Assembly: GCA_964608515.1 (NCBI GenBank)
Contig: CAZSNS010000004.1
Span: forward strand, 1,600 to 65,599
Source of the DNA: Candidatus Hadarchaeota archaeon
GTDB lineage: Archaea; Hadarchaeota; Hadarchaeia; Hadarchaeales; JAGGTB01
Reading direction: 5' to 3'
Length of the DNA stretch: 64,000 nt
Shown here: positions 17,302 to 37,078 of the stretch, in pieces
How positions within the stretch are numbered: the first letter of the stretch is position 1
How the letters are laid out: each line of letters begins with the position of its first letter
Made by a program: the position numbers and the translations under genes
The notes under the pieces: generated by a model
Database searches by the model: none
Told to the model about the DNA's origin: nothing
The model's input: the letters and a program-made list of their open reading frames with translations, nothing else

Positions 17302-17396
17302 GAATCTTTCCCAATTTTTAGTGAAGGAAAAGGGTCAAGGGGGTTTCAACCTTAAGGACTGTTACAAATCGATTGGAAAAGCCGAATAGTCTCGGA

Positions 17397-17422
17397 TTTT
17401 TTGTTATGGGTGTAACAAAAAA
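17397..17422 (+). repeat. 25-bp palindromic element, copy 6
   Basis: Exact match, 110 bp downstream of the tRNA and abutting the 3' end of the wHTH gene. Confidence 0.9.
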
Positions 17423-17431
17423 TTACTCATT

Positions 17432-17743
17432 TTACTGAGTTTCAACACCAGCGTTTATCATTTCGTTCCATTTTTCTATAACCTCTTGACCATTCTCAGT
17501 TATGGAGAGGACATCACTGTCTTTTCTCCCTATTTCTGGTTCGTCCTTTGCTTCTATAAGATTCATGTCAATTAGTTTTTCTATCCTATCGTAGAGGGTT
17601 TCGTAAGATCCTCCTATTTTTTTCTGTATTTCGGATAATATTCTCTTTTCCTTCTTAACGAATCGAAGAATTTCCACTGTTTTTGAGTTTCGGAGTAGTT
17701 CTTCTAATTTCCGCCTTTTTCTATCTGCAAGTTTTCTACTCAT
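17432..17743 (-). CDS. small winged-helix DNA-binding regulator
   Basis: 103 aa. wHTH-like core (VEILRFVKKEKRILSEIQKKIGGSYETLYDRIEKLIDMNLIE). It is divergent from the ImmA-like gene. Confidence 0.4.
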   Translation of the reverse strand: MSRKLADRKRRKLEELLRNSKTVEILRFVKKEKRILSEIQKKIGGSYETLYDRIEKLIDMNLIEAKDEPEIGRKDSDVLSITENGQEVIEKWNEMINAGVETQ

Positions 17744-17928
17744 TTCATTTCATAATTAATATCCTAAATAAATAAAGTTTACTTAATATGTAAATATTTG
17801 CTCTTATTAGTTTACATATTTACGATATCCGTAAAGAATTAGTTTACATATGGTGTTAAATAGACCAAATAAAGCAAAATTTAAGCGTTAAATATAAATA
17901 ACAGGTAAAGTAAACTTTCTAATGAATT
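17744..17928. promoter_or_regulatory. divergent promoter/operator region with a repeated GTTTAC-containing motif
   Basis: 13-bp direct repeat TTAGTTTACATAT at 17807-17819 and 17839-17851. Inverted AAAGTTTACT (17774-17783) and AGTAAACTTT (17909-17918). The region is very AT-rich. Confidence 0.4.
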
Positions 17929-18849
17929 ATGAAGGCTAAAGAATCTCTATATGATGAATTTGAATGCCTTAGAGTTGGCGAGGGTTTTTCAGAGAAGGAG
18001 GCATTTAGGGAAATTTTAAATCGAGAAGTTAGAAGTAAGTTTACAGATTTAATGAAGGAAATAGAAGACGAGAGGATGTCGCCACCATTTGATTTAAAAA
18101 AAGTGGCTGAAGATTTAGTTTCTCAAGATATAGGAGAAAAAATAGAAGTAATTGAGGAGGATCTTGCTAGAGCCGGTTATGTACGGGAAGATTTTGACAA
18201 TGACGATGGTAAAATAATACATATTGATAAGGATGCTCCGACTTATAGAAAGAATTTTACTTTGGCTCATGAAATTGGACATATATATGGACACCTTATT
18301 ATGAAAAGAAATAAGATAGTCGAATTACGCAAAAATTTAGAAGAAGAATTTTTGGATAATATTGTCGAAAATGTTATGGATGATTTTGCTGGAAGCTTGT
18401 TAATGCCGAAAGGATATATAGAAGATATTGAAGATGAGATAAATAACAATTTGAACTACGATACTCTTATGGATATTTCTAAAAAGTTTAGTGTAAGCAA
18501 GCAGTCTCTAATTATAAGGTTAAATGAATTGGATATACTGGAACATCCTAATATCATTATTCTATTTAAGAATACTTTTTATTTTGACAAAAGGAAACCA
18601 GAAAAGATGAATAGAGATAGGGCTTGGCGTGTTTATTGTCGATCTACCCCTTCCGGATTATTTATCCCAGTCAACGCAAAGGCGGCATCTCTGGGTTTTG
18701 ATGTTGATTATTGGGAAGAGATAAATAGAAGTAATTTTGCCATGCAGGATTTGATAAAAATTGATGGTAATGAAATTGAATTAATCTATAAAGCAAGAAG
18801 GAACAAAAAGTATAGAACTTTACTTAGTTTTGGGAAGATAAGGAAATGA
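17929..18849 (+). CDS. ImmA/IrrE-like HExxH zinc metallopeptidase domain protein
   Basis: 306 aa. LAHEIGHIYGHL (HEIGH). Paired divergently with a small HTH regulator, as in ImmR/ImmA modules of mobile elements. Confidence 0.4.
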   Translation: MKAKESLYDEFECLRVGEGFSEKEAFREILNREVRSKFTDLMKEIEDERMSPPFDLKKVAEDLVSQDIGEKIEVIEEDLARAGYVREDFDNDDGKIIHIDKDAPTYRKNFTLAHEIGHIYGHLIMKRNKIVELRKNLEEEFLDNIVENVMDDFAGSLLMPKGYIEDIEDEINNNLNYDTLMDISKKFSVSKQSLIIRLNELDILEHPNIIILFKNTFYFDKRKPEKMNRDRAWRVYCRSTPSGLFIPVNAKAASLGFDVDYWEEINRSNFAMQDLIKIDGNEIELIYKARRNKKYRTLLSFGKIRK

Positions 18850-18864
18850 ATAACATTTCTTGCT

Positions 18865-21273
18865 TTAGGAATACTCTTCTTCTATTTTTTCCACGATTCT
18901 TTCTTGGATTTTGTCCATTATCTCTACTTTTTTTTCACTTTCCCCTCTTTCACCTATCACATCTACAGTTTCTTTACAAGCCTTTATTATAATATCGGGA
19001 TTTACATCCTCTCTAAATTTCTCAACAGCGGCCGTATTTGCACCACGCTTATCAGGTTCTGAATAGTGTGAAATTTCTGTTGTCCATATATCATCAAAAA
19101 GTTCAAAAAAATCCTCTTTAGAACTAGGTAATTCCTCTCTTGAATATTTATGAATCTCTTCTTCTATTTTTTTGAATATTTCCTCAGTGAGGAGATATTC
19201 TTCTACCTTTCTACTTTTATTCTTTCTCCACTCTTCAAGATAGTTTTCTTTAAGTTTTTCAGTGGGTTTATAATCCATATGGGTTACTACTTTTTCGTTC
19301 TCAATTAAATCTTCTTTCGGTTGATTTAATTCCTCTGCCAAATATTCTAAAAAATTAGTTACAATCTTGCTGACAATAATTTCGTTTTTAGCGTCATCCG
19401 GATGGATGAACAAGAAAAAATTCCATAAGCGTTCATATCTTTCTTCGGATAGCAACTCAATTTCTTTCTGTATGTCTAAGCCTTCACTCCTATTTGTCAG
19501 AGGCTCTAATCTAACTTCGTCATGTTTTTCTTGAATGAATGTTCCTATCTCTTTAGCTTGAGGGTGTCTTTCAGGACAATACACAAAGGTATCCCTTTCC
19601 ACCTTACATTCACTTTCGATTTTTTCTAATTCTTCAGGGGTTGCGTGATAAGTGTCTATAAAATCATTAAGATTACTAGCAAGGTCATTAAAAAGAGTAA
19701 ATGGAATTATTGCTCCTACTTTGTTAAGTTTTCTTTCTTTAAACCTAGTCAGTAATTCATTATCAGCCCTACTTTTTATGTAATGAATCAGTTCGCTATC
19801 AGTAAGATTAAGAATAGACTTTTCTTCACCCTCATAAGGATTAGAGTCCTTAGGTTTTCTCCCTCTTAATAATTTGAGTAACATAGTACTTGCTGCTGCT
19901 TTTGTTTTATGGTAGTATACCCTTTCAGCTAAAGTATGCCTAGTATCCATTATATTGAGTATTTCTGTTATTATATCTCCTTTTTCTGCTCCCCTTTTAC
20001 CATAAATAGATAAACCTAAACGGAGGGGAGAAGTCGTGTCGTATTCAACCATAGAGTTATCTTCTCCTATGATGAAATATCTGAATATTCTCTCGTCATA
20101 CCCTTTCGATTTTATACCGCAGTTTCGTAAGTCCCGTCGAATGTAGTCTAACATATCAGCACAGATAGTATTTCCGACAATATCTGCCATAAAAGGGTGG
20201 AAGATATCTCTTTCAGAAAATTTCTCTAAACTTTTTGAAAGTTTTTCGAATATTTCTTCTACTCTAGGTTGGGATTCACCGTTTTTTACTTCAGATCTAA
20301 TGTTTTCAAGTTTGTCTTCAAAGCTTTCAATTTTACCTGTATGTTTAATTTCATGTTTGAATTTGAGAATAAGGAAGAGCAAGTCTCTAAGATCTTTATT
20401 AGAGATTGGTGATATCCATCTTCCATCATTTTCTTCGGGAAGCCAATCATCCTTCGGATTAACAAGGATTTTTCTAATTTCGCTATTTTCGTCAAAAAGT
20501 AAATACCATAATCTGGGACTTTTTATTTCATCATGCCCTTGAAATTCATCGAACTCATCTTCTAAGGTGTGTCCAAAAGGAATATGGGTTATATCGTGAA
20601 GAAGTGCGGCTATTGAGACAATTTTCTTTATTGATTTCATTTTATTGGAAAATTCTTTGTATGAATCCCTAGTATCTGGATTGGAGTAGTATTTTGAACT
20701 TCCGTTCAAATAAACGTTTAGTTTTCCATCTTCTTTTCTAATATTGTGATGGTATCCCTTATTTTTGTCGTTTAATCTCCACAATCGGTTTTCTTCTACA
20801 ACCTCAACGGTAAAGTTCTCAGAAAGAGTAAGACCGTTTCTCTCGTACTTTTCTTTAAGTGTCGTCGTTTCGGTTTCATTTAAGCTTTCCACTAGATCAC
20901 CTATATTTTCTTCTATAGTAAACAGATACTCATCCAAGAAAATATCAGAAATTTTTGAATTGAATGGTTCGAGATCCAACCTCTTATGGTTTTTCGGTAT
21001 GTTATTACATATTTTTTTAGCTAAATGATATACACCAATTGAATGCTGAAACCTTGTATGTTTGGCTCCTCGGTAAACGAGGTCGGCGAGGTTTAATTGT
21101 TTGAGTCCATCTAATCTTTCAAATTCTTTAGTATCAATTAATTTTTCCGCCAGGCCAGAAAATTCTATGTCTCCCCAGATATTATCTTTATAAATCATTC
21201 TATTCGCACCAGCCATCCCCCTAGAGGAGGGTGATGAGATTTTATGAGTTCGTTTAAATAAAAAACTTACCAT
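18865..21273 (-). CDS. dGTPase/SAMHD1-like HD-domain dNTP triphosphohydrolase with ~300-aa charged C-terminal extension
   Basis: 802 aa. FQHSIGVYHLA (H), AALLHDITHIPFGH (HD), and the DMLDYIRRD motif typical of the Dgt/SAMHD1 family. The conserved N-terminal block (NIWGDIEFSGLAEKLIDTKEFERLDGLKQL) suggests the true start is at ATG 21216 or 21198. Confidence 0.55.
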   Translation of the reverse strand: MVSFLFKRTHKISSPSSRGMAGANRMIYKDNIWGDIEFSGLAEKLIDTKEFERLDGLKQLNLADLVYRGAKHTRFQHSIGVYHLAKKICNNIPKNHKRLDLEPFNSKISDIFLDEYLFTIEENIGDLVESLNETETTTLKEKYERNGLTLSENFTVEVVEENRLWRLNDKNKGYHHNIRKEDGKLNVYLNGSSKYYSNPDTRDSYKEFSNKMKSIKKIVSIAALLHDITHIPFGHTLEDEFDEFQGHDEIKSPRLWYLLFDENSEIRKILVNPKDDWLPEENDGRWISPISNKDLRDLLFLILKFKHEIKHTGKIESFEDKLENIRSEVKNGESQPRVEEIFEKLSKSLEKFSERDIFHPFMADIVGNTICADMLDYIRRDLRNCGIKSKGYDERIFRYFIIGEDNSMVEYDTTSPLRLGLSIYGKRGAEKGDIITEILNIMDTRHTLAERVYYHKTKAAASTMLLKLLRGRKPKDSNPYEGEEKSILNLTDSELIHYIKSRADNELLTRFKERKLNKVGAIIPFTLFNDLASNLNDFIDTYHATPEELEKIESECKVERDTFVYCPERHPQAKEIGTFIQEKHDEVRLEPLTNRSEGLDIQKEIELLSEERYERLWNFFLFIHPDDAKNEIIVSKIVTNFLEYLAEELNQPKEDLIENEKVVTHMDYKPTEKLKENYLEEWRKNKSRKVEEYLLTEEIFKKIEEEIHKYSREELPSSKEDFFELFDDIWTTEISHYSEPDKRGANTAAVEKFREDVNPDIIIKACKETVDVIGERGESEKKVEIMDKIQERIVEKIEEEYS

Positions 21274-21442
21274 TTTAGTTTTAGTTTTGATTTTAATCTT
21301 CGTATTTTCTCTTGATTACTGAAGGGGTTAGATATCTATCAATTATGGAAAAATAAGATAGGAAGGACTTCTTCAGTTGCATGTCGTATTTTTATATTCC
21401 CCAATTTTATTAGTACTGTCCAGTTCTAGAATAAGATGGAAA

Positions 21443-21556
21443 ATGATATGTCCTCATTGCGACATTGAAATGAAATTAGTTGAATCGGAGGGGAATACAG
21501 AGGATAACAAGTGCCCCAAATGTGGTTTTCAAAAAACAGTAATAAGAGACAAGTAG
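21443..21556 (+). CDS. small 4-Cys zinc-ribbon protein (37 aa), below the ORF-track cutoff
   Basis: Hand translation: MICPHCDIEMKLVESEGNTEDNKCPKCGFQKTVIRDK. Two CPxC knuckles. Confidence 0.3.
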   Translation: MICPHCDIEMKLVESEGNTEDNKCPKCGFQKTVIRDK

Positions 21557-21626
21557 TTTTTAATATTTTTTGAAAGAATTGCTTTGCATGATTAAAGGGT
21601 TTGTTTTGGCTATCCCGGTATAATTT

Positions 21627-21968
21627 TTAGGACTCTACTTCTTCTTTATAACGATCATTTACCTGTTTTTGAAAATAAAGGACAAGGCCGATACAAGCAA
21701 ATATTATGGCAAATTGGATTATCAAGACTGCACATAATTTATAAGAGATTATCAGTAAAGAGCCCCTTGCTTCTAGAATCCAACTACCTACACCTATAAT
21801 TATCATTATGGCAATTAATGGTGAAACTGGAATCCAGATACTTACATATTTACGGCGATTATCGAGAGCATTCTTGTAGCGGTCGTTTTCGTGCCTATCG
21901 TAATTGTCCATAAGGGAGTGCTGTGAGGCAGCCCAAGACTGAGCTCTACTAAACACAAAGCCAGCCAA
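21627..21968 (-). CDS. small integral membrane protein (2-3 TM)
   Basis: 113 aa. Hydrophobic segments PVSPLIAIMIIIGVGSWIL and LCAVLIIQFAIIFACIGLVLYF. Confidence 0.4.
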   Translation of the reverse strand: MAGFVFSRAQSWAASQHSLMDNYDRHENDRYKNALDNRRKYVSIWIPVSPLIAIMIIIGVGSWILEARGSLLIISYKLCAVLIIQFAIIFACIGLVLYFQKQVNDRYKEEVES

Positions 21969-22011
21969 GATTCCTAAAGCCGTTAATGTTAAAGGTAGGA
22001 CTTCTATATTG

Positions 22012-22620
22012 TCACTCTCCTTGGTTCTCGATTTCTTCTTCTATCCAATCCAGAAGATTTTTAGCATGAGTTTTAGCTTCCACTTTGAACTTTTTTTTAT
22101 GCCCACTATGGCTCACAGTTTTGGGCTTAATCGCCCCCTCAACACTTTCATATTCTCCCTCATGTTTGTCAAAGATCTCTCTGAGTAAATCCCATAATTC
22201 AGATTCTAGTAAGATATAGTGGTCTTCAACTTCCTCTCCGAATTTTTTAACAAGTTTCTCAAATTTTTTCTTTAAATCCTTAAACATATTACCTTTTAAA
22301 TTACTATATCTGTTAGGTTCTTCAGTTTTCAAAGCTCTAATTAAATAAGTCGCCTGTCCGTCAGTTATGTTAAACTTATTGGTTAACACATCTCTTTCTG
22401 GCTTCCATCCAAATTCTTCACATAAGGGCCATATTATTCTGGCCATAAGCTCCGAGGTACTTGAGGGGCGAGGCTTTTCTGCTGTAATCCACTCAAAAAA
22501 GAACCGTTCCCCCTCCTCTTTCACAGTATCTCTTATAACTTCATCTTCTTCCTCGTCCCCAATCTGAAACTGATTCTTTAAATCTACAAATAGTTCATCA
22601 ATTGATTTCCTATCAGGCAC
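22012..22620 (-). CDS. hypothetical protein
   Basis: 202 aa, charged, no recognisable motif. It lies between the HD gene and the membrane gene on the same strand. Confidence 0.35.
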   Translation of the reverse strand: MPDRKSIDELFVDLKNQFQIGDEEEDEVIRDTVKEEGERFFFEWITAEKPRPSSTSELMARIIWPLCEEFGWKPERDVLTNKFNITDGQATYLIRALKTEEPNRYSNLKGNMFKDLKKKFEKLVKKFGEEVEDHYILLESELWDLLREIFDKHEGEYESVEGAIKPKTVSHSGHKKKFKVEAKTHAKNLLDWIEEEIENQGE

Positions 22621-22857
22621 CTTATTCTCCCCCCACTTCCCAAAGCAAGATAAGTCTGTCTTATTTAAAGTTTTTATGAGTTATTACTGTTTTCCGATGG
22701 TTCTAGTGCCTCGGCGACCTCACCACTTAATATTTAGCCAAGCGTGGTTTCACTTTGTGGAGTTTATCTCCGGTCCCTTTCTCCCTTTGAACCCCTGAAT
22801 AGAGGGCTACTTCGTGGACGATATCGTCTTGGGGAGTAGGAGGAATGCAATGTTTTC

Positions 22858-23664
22858 TTAGCTATCTCTTCTCTCTTCAAAATAGTCTTGAGCTTTCACT
22901 TCAATAGAGAAAGGTTCAATATTTTCACAATCCTCTAAGACAGAGTTCACTTTTTCAATTTCTTCTCTAAGTTCTTCTATTTGTTTCCCCGAAACTTCTT
23001 CCTCATGAACTATCACTAAGATTTTTCCCCCTTCTCTCACTAAAACAGATTCTATATTCATGTGGCCCTTCCATATTTCCTCATCTAGTTCTTCTTGAAG
23101 AATATCATAAACTACTTCTGGTGCTCTACGATTATCAATGTCACATGAATCAGCTATACGGAATAAAGTAGCTAACAATTGGACTTTTATCTCATCTCCG
23201 CAACTGTGAGTACGTTCTGGAATATCATCTAATTCTTCTTCTGAACGATGTCTTTTAACCACTGTCTTAAGACCACTTTCAACAGGATTATCTAAATCAA
23301 ACAAGTAGTTTTGTCTCTTTAATGTATCCCACATTTCACAAGATTTTTCGGCATGACTTTCTCTATCCTCCAAGTTCCCAATATCATGGATCCAAGCTGA
23401 AGCATATAAAATAAAAATTTCTTTTTCATTCAATTCCCCCCCTGACTCTTGATAAATATCAATAACATCATTGAGGTATCCAATAATTCTCTTAGAATGC
23501 TCATAACCGTGATCTGTAAATTTGGGAATTTCTCGCGGTATATATCTCAAAATATAAGTAATTGCCTTTTTTATCACATACAGTTTATGTTCGTATGCAG
23601 TGCTTCCATTTCCCTGATTAGCTAGTTTTTTGTATTTTTGATTATTGTTCCCCATCAACAACAA
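22858..23664 (-). CDS. HD-domain metal-dependent phosphohydrolase/nuclease-like protein
   Basis: 268 aa. H (DHGYEHSKRI), HD (AWIHDIGN), H (HAEKS), H (RHRSEE) and D (RIADSCD) in HD-superfamily order. Confidence 0.5.
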   Translation of the reverse strand: MLLMGNNNQKYKKLANQGNGSTAYEHKLYVIKKAITYILRYIPREIPKFTDHGYEHSKRIIGYLNDVIDIYQESGGELNEKEIFILYASAWIHDIGNLEDRESHAEKSCEMWDTLKRQNYLFDLDNPVESGLKTVVKRHRSEEELDDIPERTHSCGDEIKVQLLATLFRIADSCDIDNRRAPEVVYDILQEELDEEIWKGHMNIESVLVREGGKILVIVHEEEVSGKQIEELREEIEKVNSVLEDCENIEPFSIEVKAQDYFEERRDS

Positions 23665-23866
23665 TTATTGAAATTTGGATAATTAAGCTTTTAACATTGA
23701 ATTTTTAAATAACGAGTTAATTATTCAATATTGAGTTGAAATTTTGAGATGGAAAAAGACTTATAAGATGGATATTATATATCTATTTTGGTAAAAAAAA
23801 TGAAAAGATTTATAAAAAATGAACCTCCTGGTGAGGAAGAGTTTGCAGTGAAGAAAATTACCTGAG

Positions 23867-24157
23867 GTGTTTATATTGGAAGAGATACTATCCGAGGAAT
23901 TGAAGGTGGCATTAAAAGTATTCGAGTACGACAAGAAAAAAAATGAGCCTATTTATCTTAATAAACTCGATGAAGTTATCAATGATGTCAGTAAGAACAA
24001 AATAAGTAGCTCGGTTGACGAACTGTTTGACTTAGGGATAATAAATGCGAAGTGGGAGAAATCAGGGGGTAATTGGGCTAGAGTACTCACTATCAGTGGA
24101 GAAGCTGAGGACTTTTTAGAGGATCTCGACGAGCGAGTAAAGGAATTAGAGGAATAA
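23867..24157 (+). CDS. hypothetical protein (GTG start per track)
   Basis: 96 aa ORF with no motif. Confidence 0.25.
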   Translation: MFILEEILSEELKVALKVFEYDKKKNEPIYLNKLDEVINDVSKNKISSSVDELFDLGIINAKWEKSGGNWARVLTISGEAEDFLEDLDERVKELEE

Positions 24158-24341
24158 AGTTACTACATATGCTTTTTTTTCTTCAAGGTAGATAATTTTA
24201 ATAGCCTAGCTCGCTGTTTAAATTTGGTTTCTATCACTTATCTAGCATTTTTTCGGTTCGATTAATCACTAGAATTTAAAACTGACACTCTATCAAAGAT
24301 GGTTTTAAAAAGGTCAAGCTATAAACTCATTCTGTATATAT

Positions 24342-25457
24342 ATGGGTTTAGACGATTTAGAGAAGTATAAAGAGGAAGGAGAGACCTTTGGCTTAAAAGA
24401 CATAATAGATGAAAAAGAGACTTTTGATTTAAAAGAGGAATTTGAGGAGTTTATTGGAGATCATATCAAAGAACTATCTGAAAAAGATAATATTATTGCA
24501 CTAAAGAGAAAAGGGAATGTTTTTTTTGAGCATTTGAGGGAAAAATTTCCATCTTTAAAAACCCTTGGACATCTTTCACAAAATCATATCCATGTAAAAA
24601 AGGAAGAATTAGACAATTCTAAGATAATAATATTCGATGATTCAATTGATGAGGGAAATAATTTTGGAAATATCATGAAAGTATTTGAGAAACTAAATAT
24701 AAATCCGAAAGAAGTTTTAGTTCTAAATGTAATAGTGAATGAAAATGCAATCGAAAAAATAAAAGAAAAATATCAAGATGGTGACCTAAAATTTTTATAC
24801 CTCGAATCAGTTTCAGATGAGGAATACGGTAAGCTGTATCCTAAATGCATGTTTGGATATATAGATTATATAAATGAATCCTTAAACAAAGATTTTTCAA
24901 TTATTACCTTAGAATTGGATAAGAGAATTAACATTGAAGAGCTTAAAGAATGCTTTAATGAAAAATTTGATATAATGGATTTAGAACATAAATTAGATTT
25001 GGAGAGTTTAGAAAGAAATAAAGAACATATAGTCTCGAAGATTTCTTTGGACGCTGAAAAGTTTTTTAATAATAAAAGGGAAAGTTTCCCAGAAATAGAA
25101 AATATGAAGCAAACGAAAGTAAGAATTTTCTTAAGAGATAGAGAAACTAACAGCTCTATTGATATTATACCAATTTTAATCCCAGAAAATCCTCCTGTAA
25201 TGGAGTGTAAAGATAAAGAGATATGTAAACTTGATGAATTTAAGAAAAAACATCTAGAAAACTCAGAGCCTGATGAAGAATGCTTGGAAAGATACTGTAT
25301 AAAGTGTTTACAAGAAAACCTATCTAAAGATTTCGATAATAAATTTCAAAGCTATTTAATAAAAAAATTGAAAAAAAAGGGTATTCAAATAATGAGAAGC
25401 AAGACTGAATATCCAATAATTCCTGATTATTTCCCCCTTCTTGAATTTCCAACCTAA
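24342..25457 (+). CDS. PRTase-like (phosphoribosyltransferase type I fold) domain protein with Cys-rich C-terminal extension
   Basis: NIIALKRKGNVFFEHL followed by KIIIFDDSIDEGNNFGNIMKVFEKL...VLVLNVIV resembles the PRPP-binding loop (hhhhDDhhxTGxT) of type I PRTases. C-terminus has CKDKEICKLD...CLERYCIKC. Confidence 0.35.
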   Translation: MGLDDLEKYKEEGETFGLKDIIDEKETFDLKEEFEEFIGDHIKELSEKDNIIALKRKGNVFFEHLREKFPSLKTLGHLSQNHIHVKKEELDNSKIIIFDDSIDEGNNFGNIMKVFEKLNINPKEVLVLNVIVNENAIEKIKEKYQDGDLKFLYLESVSDEEYGKLYPKCMFGYIDYINESLNKDFSIITLELDKRINIEELKECFNEKFDIMDLEHKLDLESLERNKEHIVSKISLDAEKFFNNKRESFPEIENMKQTKVRIFLRDRETNSSIDIIPILIPENPPVMECKDKEICKLDEFKKKHLENSEPDEECLERYCIKCLQENLSKDFDNKFQSYLIKKLKKKGIQIMRSKTEYPIIPDYFPLLEFPT

Positions 25458-25981
25458 AAATTATAATCGACTTCATTCAAAATCTCTGGCTTTTGAGATC
25501 TCATTTCTTTGACTTTTTTTACCATATTCTCCTTCTTATTGATTTTTCCTTTTACTAATTAGATGTTTTTGATAGATATTGTTTTCTTTTTGGATTCCAG
25601 TCTTTCTAGGAAGATTTGGATAATAGATTAGAAAAAGTCGAAAAAAGATAATGTATAGCTTCCATAAACCTGATTCAAATAATGTATACACTTCCGAAGC
25701 TTCAGAGAAGAATAAGAGGGGAATTGAACGGTTGATTTTGAAGCCTTGAAGAGATTTTAACCTTCCATTCTCTTTTCATTTTTCGAAAAACGCTATCTAA
25801 TTCTCCGAACCTATATGGCTAGAATTTGGAGGTTAATAGTGTGTTAACTTTTCCGAAATCGGAAAACTATTCGCCTTTTCCTATCGTTTGTTACAAGACT
25901 ATTGGATTTGTCGCTTAGTCTTCTCAATAAATCACTATAAAGAGGAAAATAATATTAGATTCTGATTTAATAGCATAAAAC

Positions 25982-26872
25982 ATGAGCTTACGAGATTTAT
26001 ATTTGGATAGATGGAAACGAGTGAGGGCCGCGGGGATTAAAATATATGATAATAAAGGTCTAGAACAGGCAATTAATTTTATAAATAAAAATTTGAATGA
26101 TCCTCGTAAAATTGCAGGATTGGAAGCTGAACTTCTCTTCTATGATGAGTACAAGGAAAAGCATTCTTTAATACCTACTACGCTGATGGATGATATGCTA
26201 AAATGTGATTTTGCTGGTGATTATAAAGGTGGAGCGGCTCGTTTTGATGTGACGACGAACCCCGAATATAAAGATCTTTCCGAATATGAGAGTCTTCAAG
26301 AGCAGGGAGAATATTATATCGTCGTCGTTGATAGAGAGGGGAAAGATTTCCAAATATTAGATATAAACTTTCCTACATGTTCCTTTTGTGAAGGGTTAGA
26401 GGATAAAAAAGGGAGGCTTATTCCGATAGTAAATATTTCTAAACTTGGTGGAGAGTCAGTATGTAGCTCTCGTTTGAGATTTTCTAGAATATGTTCTTAT
26501 TGTGGAAAAGAAGAGCAGATTGCCTATGATGAACTATTGGAATTTTCTCCTTCATCAATCCGTTATGAGGTGGAGAAAAGATTTGAAGAGCGACTTAGGT
26601 GGGCAGAGGAAGAACGTGGTGAAGAAAAAAGGAAAGAAATAGAGAAAGAATATGAAGAGACATTAGAAGAAGAGCTAGAAGGTTATGCTAGTACTATTAA
26701 AGATTTCTGTAAAAATCAGTATGGAGGAATACCTAGGTTAGTTGGTAGTCCTGGGGGTAAGATGATTCATGGAGAAGTGGTGGAACGCTTTGAGCCCTTT
26801 TGGGTGCATCCGACTATTGATGAGTTTTTTGATCCGTTAGCAATTTCTGATCTTGTTCCCCCCCGTCCATAA
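25982..26872 (+). CDS. hypothetical Zn-finger protein (two CxxC pairs)
   Basis: 296 aa. CSFCEG...CSYCGK, with a charged coiled-coil-like C-terminus. Confidence 0.3.
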   Translation: MSLRDLYLDRWKRVRAAGIKIYDNKGLEQAINFINKNLNDPRKIAGLEAELLFYDEYKEKHSLIPTTLMDDMLKCDFAGDYKGGAARFDVTTNPEYKDLSEYESLQEQGEYYIVVVDREGKDFQILDINFPTCSFCEGLEDKKGRLIPIVNISKLGGESVCSSRLRFSRICSYCGKEEQIAYDELLEFSPSSIRYEVEKRFEERLRWAEEERGEEKRKEIEKEYEETLEEELEGYASTIKDFCKNQYGGIPRLVGSPGGKMIHGEVVERFEPFWVHPTIDEFFDPLAISDLVPPRP

Positions 26873-26975
26873 GTAGAGATAGAGAAAATACTAATGGGTT
26901 ACTGTATTCGGAATAGTCTGGTATTATCTTATTCGTGAAAACCTGTCCGGAAAGTATTGTCCAAAAATAAGTAAA

Positions 26976-27533
26976 TCATATTTTTACTTTTTCAGCTAAA
27001 CTTAAGTTTACCCTTTTCACTTTTTCTGGTTCAGCAAGTTCAAATCTCTCTAATTTTCTGTATAATTCGTTTATCGTACGTTTCCAGCCCCAGTTCGGCC
27101 GATTTCTTTTCCGAAATACTTTGTCCAATTCATTTTCGAAGTAGTCGGTAAGCTCATACTTCTCCAGCTCTTCTTGGATTTCGTCTGCTTTTGAAATGGT
27201 TTCTTTTTCAAAATCGTCACTGTTTGAAACTTTCTCACAAAAGTCAATGATTTCGGAAATCCTGTCAGTTAATGAAACTTCAATATCTAGTATTTTATCG
27301 TTCCAATTTCCTGCTTGTTTGAATATTTCTATAGTATCTTCTATTTCTTCGGTGTTTCCGACATGTTTTCGGTTGTCATCTGATTTTATCGTATCGAATA
27401 TCTCTACCCTGTCGTCCTCTATTATCGGAATATCGAAAATCATCGTTTGGTCATCCATTTCTACACCTCCAAATCCTTCCTCGCCTCCTACTATTAGGAA
27501 CTGTGTTTCTGTACGACCGCTCGTATAATCCAA
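26976..27533 (-). CDS. hypothetical acidic protein
   Basis: 185 aa ORF. Confidence 0.3.
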   Translation of the reverse strand: MDYTSGRTETQFLIVGGEEGFGGVEMDDQTMIFDIPIIEDDRVEIFDTIKSDDNRKHVGNTEEIEDTIEIFKQAGNWNDKILDIEVSLTDRISEIIDFCEKVSNSDDFEKETISKADEIQEELEKYELTDYFENELDKVFRKRNRPNWGWKRTINELYRKLERFELAEPEKVKRVNLSLAEKVKI

Positions 27534-27881
27534 GTTTGCTAAAACTAGATATTCTCCCTGCTTTTTTTCCAGCGAATCCTCTTGAAAAGCTATGAATTCT
27601 TTTTTGCCAATTAAAGGCCTTAAATGTTCTTAAAAAAATAATGAAACCTCCTTTCCTAATGTTATTAAAAAATGATGGCTCTCTGCCGAATTTTAATTAA
27701 TTACTTGGATAGAAGTTGAGGGTTTAAGTGGTTTTTCAAGGGCAATTTATTTAAAAATGGAGTGTTGTTCCCATAGAAGTGGTGGCAGAAAGAGGCTATC
27801 AACCCTGATGAGCACATAGAAACCCTTTTCAAGATATCAAAACTTAATAATGTGAGAAAGAAGTTAACATTAAAGTGAGGG

Positions 27882-28532
27882 GTGTTCTCAGTGGATGAAG
27901 ATTTTTCATTTAACCGTTTATTTTTATGCTTTCCTTTAGTCCTCCCCAATGATATTAATGAGAAGGTGGATGATTTTTTTGAAAGAATTTCCCCTGAAAA
28001 AATTTCAAATATAAAATCGGTGGAGAGGACGGATAAACACGTCTATAAGTTAATAACGGAGGAAAAGAAAGGGGCCTTTCACATTGGAGAGTTGGACACT
28101 ATACATCTAGTTATCAATGATCCCTCACATGCAGATATAGAAAATTTAAACTCAGCACTCAACGACATAGTTGGGCTTTTAAAAAGTGTTCTTGAGATAG
28201 ATAAAATCGAAACAGAAGATGGAACACTGCGGCTAGAGATTGAATCTGACTCGGATTTGGAGAAATATCTATCCAAGCTAATTTCTGAGGAAGATAGAAA
28301 AGGTTTTAGAGAAAATCTAAACTCAGATATTACTGGCTTACAATTTAAGCCTCTTACGGATACGATAGATCGCTTTAGTATAGAAAAGGAAGATGACAAT
28401 CTAGTGGGGGTCTGTGGAAAAAAGTATGACACCAAAATTGAATACGAGGAGGATTTCCTTGAGAGTGAAATTGAAAATGTAATAGAATTTTACGAATCAA
28501 AGTTAAAGGAGGTTCTTGAATATGAACCATAG
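27882..28532 (+). CDS. hypothetical protein, first gene of 3-gene operon
   Basis: 216 aa. GTG start per track; overlaps the next gene by 11 bp. Confidence 0.3.
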   Translation: MFSVDEDFSFNRLFLCFPLVLPNDINEKVDDFFERISPEKISNIKSVERTDKHVYKLITEEKKGAFHIGELDTIHLVINDPSHADIENLNSALNDIVGLLKSVLEIDKIETEDGTLRLEIESDSDLEKYLSKLISEEDRKGFRENLNSDITGLQFKPLTDTIDRFSIEKEDDNLVGVCGKKYDTKIEYEEDFLESEIENVIEFYESKLKEVLEYEP

Positions 28533-29022
28533 AGAATGCTTTACCCCAATAGAAGAGAAACATCTAACAAGGACTCTTGATTTGATAGGAATTGATAAAA
28601 GTCATCCAGAAGACCACACTATGATTTCAGAAACCACAGGACGGTTTGGATTCTTTGCATCTGTTTCGACTTGTGAACCACATCTTAAAGAAGAAGACTT
28701 GTTTGAGAAAGATATTCGAAATAATGTGACCAAAAAAATGAAAGAGAGAGCAAAAAACATCCCGACGTTAAAGAATTCTCTTGAACTTTCGATTAAAAAA
28801 ATGAAAGAATTTCTAAATTCGAAAGATATAAAATATGAATTAGAAGCTGATGTTTGGCAACCTGTGGAGTTTGAGGATAGCGGTGGAGAAAACTCCATAA
28901 CTATTCATATAGAATGTGATGATTTTGATAAAAGGAGAGAGATAGAGGACGAAATTCGAGATATAGTAAGGGAATCTGAAAAAGATGATTTAATCATATA
29001 TACCATGATTAAACGATTTTAG
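28522..29022 (+). CDS. hypothetical protein, middle gene of operon
   Basis: ATG at 28522 is preceded by AAGGAGG 10 nt upstream. 167 aa. Confidence 0.4.
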   Translation: MNHRECFTPIEEKHLTRTLDLIGIDKSHPEDHTMISETTGRFGFFASVSTCEPHLKEEDLFEKDIRNNVTKKMKERAKNIPTLKNSLELSIKKMKEFLNSKDIKYELEADVWQPVEFEDSGGENSITIHIECDDFDKRREIEDEIRDIVRESEKDDLIIYTMIKRF

Positions 29023-29032
29023 GTTGAATATT

Positions 29033-29422
29033 ATGCCGGTTAATCCGAAGGATTTTTTTGAGATTTCGCAAATGTTTACGGCCGAGATTGGTAGTGAGAT
29101 TTCTTATAGAACTGCTATAAACCGTGTTTACTATAGCTTGTTTCATCTTGTGAAAAACACTACTAAGGAGATTGAGGGTTACAAGTACAAAGGGAAGTCA
29201 AAAGATCATGGTATAACCATAGAGGCTGTAAAGGATATTTGCGGTAAAGACATAGCTGATGATTATCAAAGTTTATTTGAAGCAAGGAAAGACAGTGATT
29301 ACAATTTAGACAAAAAGATAGATGAATTAGAATATGATCATTGGAAACATAAATACAAAGAAATAAGTGAAAAATTTCGCAAGGAAGCGCCGGAATATGA
29401 GAAACTTGAGAAGTTCATTTAG
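29033..29422 (+). CDS. HEPN-domain protein
   Basis: Rx6H motif in TAINRVYYSLFH, in an alpha-helical context. It starts 11 bp after the preceding stop. Confidence 0.45.
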   Translation: MPVNPKDFFEISQMFTAEIGSEISYRTAINRVYYSLFHLVKNTTKEIEGYKYKGKSKDHGITIEAVKDICGKDIADDYQSLFEARKDSDYNLDKKIDELEYDHWKHKYKEISEKFRKEAPEYEKLEKFI

Positions 29423-29538
29423 GGATATAGTTTCTGCTGATGATGCTGACTTAAATATTCCACTTTTTTAACGTCACCAGATACATAAATTGATATGAAT
29501 TCTGGCTTCCGACCGATGTTCACAAAAACAAAAGCCGG

Positions 29539-29994
29539 ATGAGACATAAGTCTGATGAGGAAAAAACCGATATAGGAGACGAAGAGATAGATTTAAGAAT
29601 TGACTCAGTGGGAGCTAAAAACGAACTCAAAGAGTTGTTTAAAGAGAAAGAGTTCTACGACCCAGTAAGGGCGAAGGGGGCTTCCGAAGAGGTACAATCT
29701 TGGCCTAAAACGGTCAAGAAACATATGGAGGGATTGATTGGAGAGGAAGTTGATGGTGGTAGGATTGAAAAAAGCTCTACTGGAGGTTTAAATTTTTATC
29801 AGAGAAATTACTGTTCTACGGTCTGCGAAATGAAAAGGAAAGCGAAGAAGAAATGTGATGAAGAAGATGACGAGGCAGCCTGCGAAAAGAAAGAAACGCT
29901 TGGAAAGATTGAAGATGATCTTAACTGCAGTTGTCAAGTAAAGCCCCACCGTACTGAGTATTCCTCTCCAGAAAGATGGAATCGTCCTGCTTAA
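29539..29994 (+). CDS. hypothetical Cys-containing charged protein
   Basis: 151 aa. CSTVCEMK...CDEEDDEAACEK...CSCQ. Confidence 0.3.
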   Translation: MRHKSDEEKTDIGDEEIDLRIDSVGAKNELKELFKEKEFYDPVRAKGASEEVQSWPKTVKKHMEGLIGEEVDGGRIEKSSTGGLNFYQRNYCSTVCEMKRKAKKKCDEEDDEAACEKKETLGKIEDDLNCSCQVKPHRTEYSSPERWNRPA

Positions 29995-30164
29995 TTAACG
30001 GAGGTGAGCTTGTGGATATAGTAGAAGCGACTGGACAAGGTATAGGTGCCTTGATTTTAATTATTGTTTTTTTAAAGTATATTTTACCTGCTCTTTTGAG
30101 TATTTAATAAGTAAGGAGAGTATCTTATTAAGAAAAAGTAATAAATTTGAGAAATTACAAACGA

Positions 30165-30485
30165 TTATCCTAAATTTAGTTCATTTTTAATGTATTCTTC
30201 TACCTTTGGCATTTGTACTTTTAAAAAAATTTCGTCTAGCACATGCCCATAGATAAAATACAATTTGGTAAATCGATTTTCACCAGCAACAAAGACCAGC
30301 TTTATGCCTTTATTACTTAATTTTTTAAGCTCTTTTTCTTTGTTTTTTCCGATTCTTGAGTTAATTCTATCTATCTTTATGGCTATTTCGGGTCTTCTAT
30401 AATCTTTAAGAGCAAAATCAAAATATAAGCTATACCCTGCTAGTTGCCAGTGTTTAAAATATTCAATATTGTTTCGATCTAGCAT
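30165..30485 (-). CDS. small DUF559/Vsr-like (PD-(D/E)xK fold) endonuclease-like protein
   Basis: 106 aa. YSLYFDFAL...EIAIKIDR...KGIKLVFV parallels the YIVDF / IELDG / VLRF blocks of DUF559. Confidence 0.3.
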   Translation of the reverse strand: MLDRNNIEYFKHWQLAGYSLYFDFALKDYRRPEIAIKIDRINSRIGKNKEKELKKLSNKGIKLVFVAGENRFTKLYFIYGHVLDEIFLKVQMPKVEEYIKNELNLG

Positions 30486-30901
30486 TTTTTGGAGTTTCCA
30501 ACGGGGCAGACGAAAATTGCTTATTTTTGTCAGAAAAAACCCTCACTCAACAATTTGTAGTAAGTATTTGAAAAATTTATCAAAAGAGAGGGTTGTCGGT
30601 AAAATTCTAAAAAAATCAAAATTTTAGACTTATAATATTCAGACAAAATAAATAAAAGTCAGATTGTTAAAAGATGGTGAATCCGTCTTATGAAAATAAA
30701 AAAGGGTTAGAAACCTTGCTCGAGGACGGTACCCCAGATATTCTCGAACTCTTTTTGAAGTTAAAAGTATATTTTGGCAGCTTAGTTTTTAAACTCATTA
30801 AAAGATTATTAGTAGAGAATAACTCAACCGATATTTTACTTTCAGGCATCCCTCCCGAAAAGAGATAATTGTTGGAAACTTAATCGATTAAGAGGAGGTG
30901 A

Positions 30902-31198
30902 ATGATGGTATATTATTACATAAAGTGTGTCAACGAAGACGGAGATGGAAATATTGCATCGGTGGGGTATGGTAATGATTTGGACGATAAGATAAATAAG
31001 GATCTTAAGCCGAAAGAAGAGGTTATTTCCGATATTGACGAAGAGGGTCGTTTAGTGAAGACTGCATATTATTCCGATCAAAAGAGAGAATGGGTGACTG
31101 GTGATGAAGTTCACACAGTTGAGGGGGAGTACATAAGAACTGACGGGAACGATATTGAGTCCGATAACCTAGGCGAATTACAGAGTTGTCCGAGCTAA
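30902..31198 (+). CDS. hypothetical small protein
   Basis: 98 aa ORF with GGAGG 8 nt upstream. Confidence 0.3.
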   Translation: MMVYYYIKCVNEDGDGNIASVGYGNDLDDKINKDLKPKEEVISDIDEEGRLVKTAYYSDQKREWVTGDEVHTVEGEYIRTDGNDIESDNLGELQSCPS

Positions 31199-31609
31199 AT
31201 CTTATTGTGAAAGAGGAAAGTTCCATGCTGAATATTCCTAATTAGTCTAAGTAGGAGGTGATTGTTTGGATCGGAAAGTTAGAAAAGCACTTGAGATAAC
31301 GGCTGGTGTGGGTTCAATTGCAGGAACTATACTTTTTGTGGATGAATTTCTTGTTTCTGATTGAATAGTGTTTATAATCGTTACAGGGATATTATGAGTA
31401 GACTTAATTTTCTTGAAAAAAATGGAAAAATAAAAAAGGAAAAATATTACGAAGGTAAAGTTTGTTCTATTAGCTGTTCTATACCTAGCCGTGATAGTAT
31501 TTTTGTAATCATTGTGTTAAATCTAAGAATAAGTATATTTTAGAATTAAATCGGGTGGATTGAGACTTAACATATTAGAGGACTACATTAAAAGACTAAA
31601 TAATTGATT

Positions 31610-32803
31610 TTACAGTTTATTCAAAAGTGTATCGTAAATATCATCAATTGTGGCTTCTAGACCCCAAGCGAAGTTTGCAACTCTTCTGAAAATATCTGAA
31701 GTTATTCGAAATCTATTAGGTCTTCTAAAATTATGATTTAGGTTCTTTTCCCCCTCTACTTTTTCCCTAATCGACTCTAACTTCTCTGCATTTTCCGGTT
31801 TTCCTTCGGTTGGTTTTAATTCATCCATAACTCTTCCAGGAATCATGTTTGAGAAGGATATCCGGAAAATGTAGTCCCAATTTGACCTACCCATTGTGTC
31901 CTGATAAACTTCATTTAATACATTCATTAGTTTCTCTCTATTTTTTGTCAGTATATTAAGCAGTGCGTCTAATCCTCTCTGGTCAAGAAAATCTAGAGAT
32001 CTCTTAAGGAAAAATAATAAATCATCATGACTCAATGAATCCAGTTTATTACTTTGTTCGTAAATCAGCTGTAGCATTCTCGCTCCCTTGGAGAGAGTTA
32101 CAGCCCTATCTTTCATTTTCCAAACTAATGGTAGGAGTTCCTTTACTTCATTTTTGGTTATTTCTTCGTATTCTCCGTCAGAGTCGATTACACCATTATA
32201 TAATTTAGTTCTAATATTCCTTACCGATTCTCTAAAAGGAGAATTACCCACATAGAGGTTATAGATGAGATTGGATCTTTTAAACTCCCTTTCTAAGTCT
32301 TTTGTAGTCCAGAGCTCTACCTCGGGTTTTTCATCAGCTGTTTCTAAAAATGATTGGGTGGCACCCTTTGTATATAAATAGATTTTTCTATCAGCATCTT
32401 GTTGATGGAGTAATTCAAGTTGTGATATATCTTTTTGCATTGGCTTTCTTTTCACTCCGATCAGAATAGTTTCTGAATTATTATCACATTCGAGATCTAC
32501 GCCTTTTTCGTGTGATGGGTCGTTTTCGTGCCGCCATCTTACTTTATATCCTAGGCACTCAAAGTGTATTTTTAAGAGTGCGTGAATCTCTTTTTCCTGA
32601 AAATCGGTCCAAGGGATTTTTGTCTCTTCCCACTCTCTTAGCTCAGGCGGCAGAGATTCTTCCGAGTCCTCATCAAAATTTTCATTCATTTTTATAGGTC
32701 TATCTTCATTTGAGTAGGCTAATGATTTAACTGTAACTAAATAGATGAATAGAATAACTAAGATTTTTTTGATAAGAAAGAGAATTAAAAAACGAAATGT
32801 CAT
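31610..32803 (-). CDS. N-terminally membrane-anchored hypothetical protein with possible restriction-endonuclease-like core
   Basis: 397 aa. N-terminal TM helix. HFECLGYKVRW...KGVDLECDN...ETILIGVKRK resembles Mrr/NERD-like PD-(D/E)xK cores (weak). Confidence 0.3.
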   Translation of the reverse strand: MTFRFLILFLIKKILVILFIYLVTVKSLAYSNEDRPIKMNENFDEDSEESLPPELREWEETKIPWTDFQEKEIHALLKIHFECLGYKVRWRHENDPSHEKGVDLECDNNSETILIGVKRKPMQKDISQLELLHQQDADRKIYLYTKGATQSFLETADEKPEVELWTTKDLEREFKRSNLIYNLYVGNSPFRESVRNIRTKLYNGVIDSDGEYEEITKNEVKELLPLVWKMKDRAVTLSKGARMLQLIYEQSNKLDSLSHDDLLFFLKRSLDFLDQRGLDALLNILTKNREKLMNVLNEVYQDTMGRSNWDYIFRISFSNMIPGRVMDELKPTEGKPENAEKLESIREKVEGEKNLNHNFRRPNRFRITSDIFRRVANFAWGLEATIDDIYDTLLNKL

Positions 32804-33075
32804 TTAAAGTTGAATGTAGTTTCTGTGATGATTTTGAAGAAGAATACGAAGTTAGGGATGAAGCTAGGGAAGCGGGAAGAGAACACTTACTAGAGGAACA
32901 TGATTCGGAATTAAGAGAAAATTATCCTGGTTCGAGAGATAGATGTCAACAAGGATGTGGACACAAAATTGATGAAAACCTCATATGTAAAGGGCCGGAA
33001 AGACATGATAACATAAACTGGTATGCAGGGATATATGCTTCTATAGGAATGGTTGAGGAAGTTAAAGAAGGATGA
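32797..33075 (+). CDS. small Cys/His-rich putative metal-binding protein
   Basis: 92 aa. CSFCDD...HLLEEHD...CQQGCGHK...CKGPERHD. Confidence 0.3.
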   Translation: MSFKVECSFCDDFEEEYEVRDEAREAGREHLLEEHDSELRENYPGSRDRCQQGCGHKIDENLICKGPERHDNINWYAGIYASIGMVEEVKEG

Positions 33076-33416
33076 ATTATTGAAAGAGGCACTACGATTT
33101 AGTTATGAATTAGATTAAGTTATTGATTCCTTTGTTTGTGTTAAGATATGATTGGTTTTAGTATATAAATATAGATAAAGATTTGATAAAAGAAGCTTTC
33201 TTTTTACCATTTCGTATTCAACCTCTTGCAATAATAGATCCTATTTGTAATCGAGGATGCAATATATATAGATTTTCCGAGAAGTCTAAATGGAAATGTC
33301 GGGTTAGGTTGGATTTTTATTTAAGTGTTTATGGGGGCGAGGTAGTTAATATCGAATTTTAATATTGTTCGAAGGGGTACCAATCTCCTTTACCTCCTTT
33401 AGATAAAGATCTTAAA

Positions 33417-33722
33417 GTGGAAGATGAATGGATAAAAACTGATGGAAGTTTTCGGCCGACAAAATCACTCGGTGAGTTAAGGAACGCTAAAGTTTGTATA
33501 ACTGAGTATTTTGCCCCGAGTATTCACTGGGGTGGAATATGGGAGGATAAAAATTATGGGAATAGAATCGACTATGAACCGTTTGATTTGAATGTGGAAA
33601 TTGAACCTAAATCACCACGTAATAGAATTACACATACATATTTAGGGAAATTGGAACCCGGAGGTAAATTTAAACAAAGGAAGGGTTTGATTTCTTTTAG
33701 TTCTCCATTTAAAATATTATGA
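33417..33722 (+). CDS. hypothetical protein
   Basis: 101 aa ORF. Confidence 0.25.
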   Translation: MEDEWIKTDGSFRPTKSLGELRNAKVCITEYFAPSIHWGGIWEDKNYGNRIDYEPFDLNVEIEPKSPRNRITHTYLGKLEPGGKFKQRKGLISFSSPFKIL

Positions 33723-33872
33723 GTGATGTAGAATTGCTAGGATTAATAGCAGTATTTGCCGTAATATTTGGAATGATTTGTAATTGATGGAGTAATCAAT
33801 AATAGAGTCTGCTAGGATTTCCGATAATATTCCTTTAAACGATATATCGGCCGAATCGCCGGAGGGAATCTT

Positions 33873-34802: not shown

Positions 34803-34845
34803 CTCACTTTAATTACAAAAATTTTAATTAAATTAGGAGGGTAGA

Positions 34846-35949: not shown

Positions 35950-36304
35950 ATAGGGAATCTAATTAGTTTCAATCCGATAAATTTGCCTTTCGGGCTTCCG
36001 AAAATCGTGTTCCTAACTAAACAATGGCAATTTTATGGTTAAGAGATTTTGTAGGATTGCTGTTGCAAGATTTTATTCTCCTTCTAATTTTCGGAAATTC
36101 CAATCTTTTGGAATTTTCGGCAAGCTGATTGGATACTTTCTAGATAGGTAATATTGAGGAAGGGAAAATGAAGACTAAAAAACTGATATTTAAAACCCCC
36201 CGAAACCCTTTAATAAAATAAGTGATGAACTCTGCCTTGGCTCCACTCGTCTTCTTCCTCCCGTGCCAATGCTTTCTTTTTTCTCTCTTTGAAGGACTTC
36301 CAGC

Positions 36305-36929: not shown

Positions 36930-37078
36930 TAAACTTGTGTGAAGAGAAAAACCCATTTACCACTTTTTTCGATTTTACTTCTTAAGATACAAAGCTAAAG
37001 GGATTGGAAACAGTATATCTTGAGAACCTGGTTCAACCTTATTCTCATCAAAAAATTGCTTAAACAAAAGAATGTTTT

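Follow-up and report, generated by a model that had tools for sequence, protein, structure and literature searches.

A divergent, predicted phosphoribosyltransferase and its HD-CE and winged-helix partners on a variable archaeal island: a candidate nucleotide- or PRPP-targeting conflict module

A three-gene cassette centered on a divergent phosphoribosyltransferase (PRTase)-like protein of 371 residues was found in a 64,000-nucleotide stretch of DNA (hereafter the window) from a Candidatus Hadarchaeota archaeon (contig CAZSNS010000004.1 of assembly GCA_964608515.1, positions 1,600 to 65,599). An earlier note, made from the letters of the window, had drawn attention to the PRTase-like layout of this protein, to its Cys-containing tail and to a gene for a 296-residue Zn-finger-like protein downstream; both open reading frames (ORFs) are real and lie on the plus strand where that note had placed them. 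The cassette joins the PRTase-like gene to two upstream genes, one encoding an HD-CE phosphohydrolase and the other a small winged-helix-like protein, and this linkage is backed by two independent fusions. The cassette is mobile, island-borne, strain-variable and GC-poor. We read it, with a probability of roughly 0.55, as a nucleotide- or phosphoribosyl pyrophosphate (PRPP)-targeting anti-virus or abortive-infection module, and depletion of nucleotides or of PRPP is its likely function.

Profiles and modeling indicate that the N-terminal half of the 371-residue protein is a real but divergent type I PRTase domain, spanning residues ~25–178. The motif quoted in the earlier note is present (K94-IIIFDDSIDEGNNFG-109, plus V125-LVLNVIV), and profile, structure and family tests agree with the layout that had been read from it. 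The structure prediction that had been proposed as a check is confident: an AlphaFold2 (AF2) model built on the alignment of the 36-cluster family described below reaches a pLDDT of 86.5 and a pTM of 0.83 and displays, together with its Foldseek matches, a Rossmann-like parallel β-sheet core flanked by helices. The N-terminal domain of the model superposes on type I PRTases alone. Its top 50 Foldseek matches are all PRTases, among them UPRT 3g6w (E = 1.4e-4), HGPRT and APRT, over ~130–165 columns, and a fold search of BFVD returned generic PRTases only.

Profile matches obtained from the single sequence are all sub-threshold. The best Pfam match is UPRTase (PF14681; 23.7 bits, E = 3.8e-5, cut-off 27), and the only NCBIfam match is PRK00553 (PRPP synthase), at 19.7 bits versus a cut-off of 484. 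The best match in the defense library is the PADLOC model PRTase_III-A (E = 6.1e-5), which covers the PRPP-loop region only; the PADLOC model for ShosT matches weakly (14.7 bits, E = 5e-3). A PDB sequence search with the single protein gave nothing meaningful (best match tenascin, E = 0.49). In the PDB, the family profile reaches HGPRT/PRTFDC1 at 4e-7; its matches to PurR and PyrR of Bacillus subtilis, at E = 0.04 and 0.085, do not reach significance.

Conservation is concentrated in two loops of this domain. The PRPP loop reads I95-I-I-F-D99-D100-S-I-D-E-G105, and its core, F98-D99-D100-S101-I102-x-x-G105, is among the most conserved positions of the family, with F98, D99 and D100 kept in 33–34 and G105 in 32 of the 34 members. 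R56-K57-G58, kept in 28–30 of 30 members, sits after model strand 50–53, the first core strand, and by this position would constitute the pyrophosphate (PPi) loop.

The family is small. An exhaustive phmmer search of 1.84 billion cluster representatives retrieved 36 clusters matching the 371-residue protein, most of them 300–370 residues long and aligned across both halves. Matches at E ≤ 0.01 are to Pribosyltran (PF00156) for 24 of the 36, to UPRTase for 20 and to PRTase-CE for 16. The search against PF00156 suggested in the earlier note had a divided outcome: the 371-residue protein itself has no match, but its relatives P0011 (53.3 bits), P0029 (41.8 bits), P0037 (33 bits) and P0033 (32.2 bits) score above the threshold. 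The threshold of PRTase-CE (PF24390; 27 bits) is passed by P0025 alone, at 33 bits, with other relatives at 16.7–24.7 bits. P0011 (507 residues) carries an additional canonical PRTase domain at its N-terminus (PF00156, 53 bits), and P0007 begins with a transmembrane segment that occurs as a separate 137-residue ORF in locus L010 (359–772). Among 5.8 billion proteins searched by word index, the 371-residue protein retrieved only itself, and a second search, with the family alignment, gave at least 10 proteins. Searching for loci with the close subfamily identified one genome locus (among 185,579 species genomes) and three metagenome loci.

Examination of the loci that carry family members relocated the partners of the PRTase-like gene. 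The earlier note had paired it with the downstream Zn-finger-like gene and had described flanks of some 500 bp free of ORFs. The 524-bp downstream gap indeed lacks long ORFs, but upstream the gene for a 96-residue winged-helix-like protein ends only 184 bp before the PRTase-like gene, with the HD-CE gene beyond it; these two are the true partners and had been missed. Homologues of the 96-residue protein (30–55% identity) adjoin the PRTase-like gene in L009, L010, L011, L012, L004, L005-8 and L014, and in P0032 (L016) the winged helix and the PRTase-like protein are one polypeptide, with the winged helix N-terminal. Counted over non-redundant loci, this partner of ~95–100 residues is adjacent in eight and fused in a ninth.

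The HD-CE gene matches PF24391 at 88.2 bits (cut-off 27, E = 9.3e-25), and its product retains the metal-binding motifs H52/H56, H93-D94 (WIHDIG), H104, H139 and D172. Four loci (the window, L009, L004 and L005-8) have it next to the winged-helix and PRTase-like genes, and in a fifth, L014, HD-CE and the PRTase-like domain form one polypeptide, P0023. Wherever it is a separate gene, HD-CE is divergent from the winged-helix gene, at a distance of 192–382 bp, with the PRTase-like gene on either side; the divergent layout of the window is found again in L009, L004 and L005. A search of plasmids with HD-CE retrieved Clostridium HD-TPR contexts only, without a PRTase.

The winged-helix fold of the 96-residue protein is weakly supported (Pfam DUF7887/PadR-type; PDB Pex/PadR, E = 0.08). 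The protein is a conserved part of the cassette, in which it probably serves as adaptor or regulator. The intergenic region that it shares with HD-CE is presumed to be a common promoter/operator region. Imperfect inverted repeats are present there (23693–23732), and no convincing operator was shared across the winged-helix upstream regions of eight loci. T-runs follow both the 96-residue and the 371-residue genes, and the start of the latter has a TTTAAAAA box ~35 nt upstream; separate transcription units are therefore probable.

Two unrelated metagenomic loci, L001 (6307–7800) and L016 (4199–5717), have another, divergently arranged gene pair beside the PRTase-like gene. It encodes an orotate phosphoribosyltransferase (OPRT)-like and an orotidine monophosphate (OMP) decarboxylase-like protein, which are 33% and 43% identical, respectively, between the two loci and score far under the NCBIfam pyrE/pyrF cut-offs. 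Possibly this pair takes the place of HD-CE as a partner module. A 439-residue neighbor in L016 was not detected in the HD-CE profile search despite its LSHDIGY motif.

The C-terminal half of the 371-residue protein is a further distinguishing feature of the family. Modeled alone, these ~190 residues give a pLDDT of 82.7 and form an antiparallel sheet packed on a long helix. The earlier note had described a long extension with CxxC motifs; the long tail with cysteines stands, but it holds a single CxxC (C319-IK-C322) and not several. Together with C289 and C295, this motif makes up a candidate metal site with the spacing Cx5C...CxxC, and the resulting Cys4 site probably binds Zn. An Arg and the four cysteines are invariant among the 22 members of the Cys branch (alignment A5), and K259-x-R261 is conserved in the domain; one sub-branch of the family is entirely without the four cysteines, and the further cysteines C169, C204 and C314 of the 371-residue protein are not conserved. 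Compared by itself with PDB folds, the domain has no match at E ≤ 0.001 (best match DUF302, 0.018). Helix-grip/START-like (Bet v 1-like) and DUF302 identities were rejected as weak, with root-mean-square deviations of 9–18 Å.

The cassette is carried on an island that begins beside an intron-containing tRNA gene. An att-like core of ~28 nt (CCCGCCGCCCCATCGCACCAAAGGTTC) comprises the tRNA 3′ end and its flank, and copies recur ~19.6 and 20.5 kb downstream; no integrase gene was recognized. In the close relative GCA_964400045.1, which shows 80–90% nucleotide identity in the flanks, synteny ends exactly at 17304 and returns from 37941 on; a different cargo of 7.9 kb without the cassette lies between the breakpoints. 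The GC content is 0.344 in the island and 0.385/0.398 in its flanks, falling to 0.306 in the cassette, and the GC content of the cassette is below that of its flanks in every family locus. One such locus, L009, belongs to a Methanobacteriota metagenome-assembled genome (JBDRDL010000077.1), where the cassette (9965–12293; GC 0.317 vs 0.45–0.47) sits between a purS-purL-purQ/creatininase-like block and purC. Since the cassette there is a low-GC insertion, its purine surroundings seem to mark where it inserted and not a functional link. Some other family loci adjoin MmeI-type or DUF1156/DUF499 modification genes. The window as a whole features Cdc6/Orc1, the intron-containing tRNA and uniformly acidic proteins, and its DNA is archaeal. 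Taken with the sole homologue of the 296-residue protein, which is from Methanonatronarchaeum, these features suggest a halophile-like archaeon.

How the cassette might work can be sketched as follows. The PRTase domain would bind PRPP or a nucleotide and would either consume PRPP or run the reverse reaction on nucleotides, and HD-CE would hydrolyze nucleotide phosphates. The winged-helix protein would serve as a DNA-binding regulator or sensor that silences the enzymes until infection, and the Cys4 domain could be a regulatory or partner-binding module. Upon activation the nucleotide supply would collapse, starving viruses of precursors.

Several results weigh against a depleting anti-virus module. 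The 371-residue protein falls below every Pfam cut-off in a scan that gave no PF00156 match, and PF24390 (PRTase-CE) does not match it at E ≤ 1. The canonical Thr residues of the PRPP-loop motif TG-x-T are not conserved across the family, and catalysis by the family therefore cannot be assumed; a conserved PRPP loop is also present in the noncatalytic PurR and PyrR. HD-CE is missing in L010, and it was undetected in L001 and L016, where the OPRT-like/OMP-decarboxylase-like pair is found instead. No relatives were found on viral contigs in the close-subfamily locus search, and plasmid and phage collections searched by tblastn with the PRTase-like protein gave no match. No PADLOC model matches the winged-helix protein or recognizes the cassette. 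The function proposed for the family is a prediction.

The alternative that survives best, which we regard as possible though unlikely, takes the PRTase fold for a noncatalytic sensor of PRPP or nucleotide, as in PurR and PyrR. Acting with the winged-helix protein, it would repress the divergent HD-CE gene, whose product would be the sole effector; the cassette would remain a mobile module of stress or defense, with the PRTase as its receptor and not an enzyme. Only P0032, with its winged helix fused N-terminally, has the domain order of PurR, and separate winged-helix and HD-CE genes are invariably divergent neighbors; the marginal profile matches to B. subtilis PurR and PyrR, the unconserved threonines of the PRPP loop and the position of the L009 copy between purQ and purC fit the same picture. 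Catalytic PRTases, however, score far better against the family profile than PurR and PyrR do (4e-7 vs 0.04), and the fusion of HD-CE to the PRTase-like domain in P0023 suggests enzyme coupling. The pur context of L009 appears incidental to a low-GC insertion, as described above, and characterized defense PRTases work through PRPP.

Quite improbable, in our estimate, is a role in making nucleotides and not in depleting them. From PRPP, the PRTase-like enzyme would build an unusual nucleotide that serves as a signal or as the precursor of a modified base; HD-CE would trim or degrade the product, and the OPRT-like/OMP-decarboxylase-like pair would supply or process it elsewhere. The recurrence of this specifically related pair in L001 and L016 speaks for such a pathway, as do the intact PPi and PRPP loops, which forward phosphoribosyl transfer needs. 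Against it, the pair is absent from the window, no signal receptor or effector is evident, the base-binding hood subdomain is not recognizable, and the proposal is speculation from context alone.

A two-gene system formed by the PRTase-like protein and the 296-residue Zn-finger-like protein, as the earlier note had envisaged, is hardly credible. The two genes are adjacent and on the same strand, and the 296-residue protein does contain the two CxxC motifs ascribed to it (C133-SF-C136 and C171-SY-C174), but the second of these is lost in the single homologue (P0045; 33% identity), in which CSYC aligns to CSYD. P0045 is encoded in Methanonatronarchaeum sp. AMET-Sl (CP122958.1, 566721–583509; L013), where the neighbors are Viral_env_HRPV and VP3 genes of a pleolipovirus-like provirus and a gene for a 1152-residue type IIG restriction-modification enzyme, without a PRTase. 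The 296-residue gene is missing from all nine other non-redundant family loci. For these reasons, namely its absence elsewhere in the family, the provirus-side location of the sole homologue and the loss of the second CxxC there, it is judged an unrelated neighbor on the island and not a member of the cassette. A conserved block in the protein, AGLEAE...DFxGDY...RFDVTTN...ILDINFP, is suggestive of a nuclease-like core and not of a Zn ribbon.

The gap that parts the two genes (25458–25981) contains T-runs and, on the minus strand, ORFs of 50–51 residues only. Rfam matched nothing in it, neither a structured RNA nor a retron noncoding RNA was seen, and its folding is ordinary, with z-scores of −0.61 (plus strand) and +0.02 (minus strand).

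Equally unconvincing is a conventional PRTase of salvage or biosynthesis (Upp/Hpt/Apt/PyrE/Prs) whose tail happens to be unusual, a highly improbable identity that the earlier note had likewise set aside: although UPRTase is the best Pfam match and PRPP synthase the only NCBIfam match, both scores lie far under the curated cut-offs, the family is extremely rare (36 clusters in 1.84 billion representatives; one match in 185,579 species genomes), and the gene is island-borne, GC-poor and absent from the close relative.

The remaining cargo of the island includes further genes of interest (feature coordinates are collected in Table 1). An 802-residue HD-domain protein (18865–21273, minus strand) has weak matches to dGTP triphosphohydrolases and anti-phage dGTPases (E = 1e-7 to 9e-3) and could possibly be a second nucleotide-depleting gene product of the island. 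At the island edge, a winged-helix gene (HTH_45/PadR-like; 17432–17743, minus strand) and an IrrE/M78 peptidase gene (17929–18849, plus strand) form a divergent pair, a layout typical of mobile-element regulatory switches. Also encoded are a HEPN-like protein (29024–29422, plus strand; phrog_5176, E = 2.8e-12), a protein with an Mrr_cat restriction-endonuclease domain (31610–32803, minus strand) and a PP2C phosphatase (33873–34802, plus strand), which by their predicted domains are defense-like cargo. With its Mrr_cat, HEPN-like, M78 peptidase and dGTPase-like HD neighbors, this GC-poor island makes the defense or conflict context raised in the earlier note plausible.

A repeated element was also observed across the window. 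A 20-nt hairpin, TTTGTTATGGGTGTAACAAA, has eight exact copies, at 5098, 7008, 7831, 8423, 8519, 17400 and 46230 on the plus strand and at 47242 on the minus strand, with 0.01 expected by chance. All copies lie between listed ORFs of ≥100 residues and are usually flanked by T- or A-runs. The hairpin is also present in the GCA_964400045.1 contig (L017), and the island interior is without copies. It looks like a genome-specific terminator or a repetitive extragenic palindrome (REP)-like element.

Table 1. Coordinates of the cassette, its island and neighboring features in the window
Feature	Position	Strand	Basis or remark
Variable GC-poor island carrying the cassette (~20.6 kb)	17305..37940		Repeats, synteny break, GC
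Intron-containing tRNA at island edge	17195-17286		Rfam
att-like core copies (~28 nt)	17274-17303, 36902-36930, 37825-37846		Direct repeats
HD-CE phosphohydrolase, 268 aa	22858..23664	-	Pfam PF24391
AT-rich divergent intergenic region, HD-CE/winged helix (202 bp)	23665..23866		Divergent layout recurs
Winged-helix-like (PadR-like) protein, 96 aa	23867..24157	+	Homologues beside PRTase-like genes
PRTase-like ORF, 371 aa	24342-25457	+	ORF list
Predicted type I PRTase domain, residues 1-178	24342..24875	+	Profile, AF2/Foldseek, family profile, conservation
Putative PPi loop, R56-K57-G58	24507-24515	+	Position and conservation
PRPP loop, K94...G105	24621-24656	+	Motif and conservation
C-terminal alpha+beta domain, residues 178-371 (stop codon included)	24873..25457	+	Alignment and AF2
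Cys4 site, C289, C295, C319, C322	25206-25307	+	Alignment
Cys-containing protein, 296 aa	25982..26872	+	ORF list; judged outside the cassette

Among known systems, the closest theme is that of the PRTase-CE and HD-CE effectors. Nicastro, Burroughs, Iyer and Aravind reportedly named both in 2023 and predicted them to be nucleotide-degrading immune effectors. What we take to characterize PRTase-CE proteins, an effector located in mobile conflict or defense neighborhoods and often accompanied by other nucleotide-targeting CE domains, is what is found at this locus. The two profiles, PF24390 and PF24391, are consecutive Pfam entries. Points of likeness are the bona fide HD-CE neighbor, the relative P0025 above the PRTase-CE cut-off, the P0023 fusion and the mobile, defense-island-like context. 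Unlike typical members, the 371-residue protein has no PF24390 match, most of its relatives remain at 17–25 bits (cut-off 27), and this branch possesses an extra Cys4-containing C-terminal domain of ~190 residues and an obligate small winged-helix partner. These profile and neighborhood comparisons speak for regarding the family as a divergent offshoot of the predicted PRTase-CE/HD-CE conflict-effector class. To our knowledge, HD-CE and PRTase-CE effectors have yet to be studied by experiment, and hardly any archaeal examples are known.

The nearest experimentally tested analogues are the retron type III pair of PRTase and winged helix and ShosT. In type III retrons, the PRTase-like effectors are accompanied by a winged-helix protein, either separate or fused (Mestre et al. 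2020, PMC7736814), and Retron-Eco11's PRTase (+ winged helix) effector, when activated, cuts PRPP by ~50% (PMC12746101). The cassette resembles them in pairing or fusing a PRTase-like protein with a winged-helix protein (adjacent in eight loci, fused in P0032) and in having PADLOC PRTase_III-A as its best defense-library match. It differs in that its winged helix is N-terminal or separate and not C-terminal, and HD-CE and the Cys4 domain are its additional components instead. Among the island ORFs scanned, none has a reverse transcriptase (RT) domain, and Rfam gave no retron RNA; intergenic fold z-scores are about 0, with no sign of an msr/msd noncoding RNA, and a regular-expression search for the retron motif Gx14PNNxP (PMC12746101) was positive in 0 of 36 family members.

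ShosTA offers a second parallel, as a noncanonical PRTase-domain toxin under the control of a nucleic-acid-binding partner (PMC12961424); toxicity of ShosT requires PRPP binding (PMC12961424). The match to the ShosT model is weak here and the domain architecture differs, and no ShosA or DprA-like partner was matched by PADLOC among the cassette neighbors. Because there is no RT or noncoding RNA, no Gx14PNNxP motif and no ShosA, the cassette does not belong to retron type III or to ShosTA.

A relationship to the retron type III pair may nevertheless be imagined, and we put it forward tentatively, as an improbable refinement of the depletion mechanism: the cassette would be an RT-less, mainly archaeal counterpart in which the Cys4 domain senses an infection cue and the PRTase and HD-CE form a coupled two-enzyme sink. 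HD-CE could, for example, convert nucleoside triphosphates to monophosphates and PPi, and the PRTase could convert monophosphates and PPi to free base and PRPP; alternatively, PRPP would be drained. If this were true, it would be an immune mechanism that dismantles nucleotides, of a kind yet to be demonstrated anywhere, and one of only a few known mechanisms of abortive infection in archaea.

The pairing of two enzymes has a template in PUA-Calcineurin-CE-HAD. "CE" denotes conflict effector, with Nicastro et al. 2023 (NAR 51:11479) cited for the definition of Calcineurin-CE (PMC12871103). Calcineurin-CE depletes deoxynucleoside triphosphates, and PUA-Calcineurin-CE-HAD is a two-enzyme depletion cascade for these substrates (PMC12871103). 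The combination of a CE effector with a second phosphohydrolase parallels that of PRTase and HD-CE, but the calcineurin/HAD and PRTase/HD folds are unrelated and the sensor there is a PUA domain, so that the likeness is one of analogy only. As for B. subtilis PurR and PyrR, the likeness lies in a winged helix combined with a PRTase fold that has a conserved PRPP loop, P0032 having the domain order of PurR; the sequence similarity is marginal, however, and the present family is rare and mobile instead of housekeeping, with the extra Cys4 domain and the HD-CE partner.

Attack on the nucleotide pool is an emerging immune strategy, represented by dNTPases, Calcineurin-CE/HAD, the retron PRTase and ShosT. 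To these the locus adds a compact three-gene archaeal cassette backed by fusions in other genomes, with clear catalytic-motif targets (D99/D100, R56/K57, H93/D94 and Cys4) and a C-terminal domain that is possibly a sensing or regulatory element, and it corrects the gene pairing suggested by reading the letters of the window alone. Seen beside these systems, the locus is both rare and divergent, a probably archaeal version of nucleotide-targeting conflict systems that had already been predicted.

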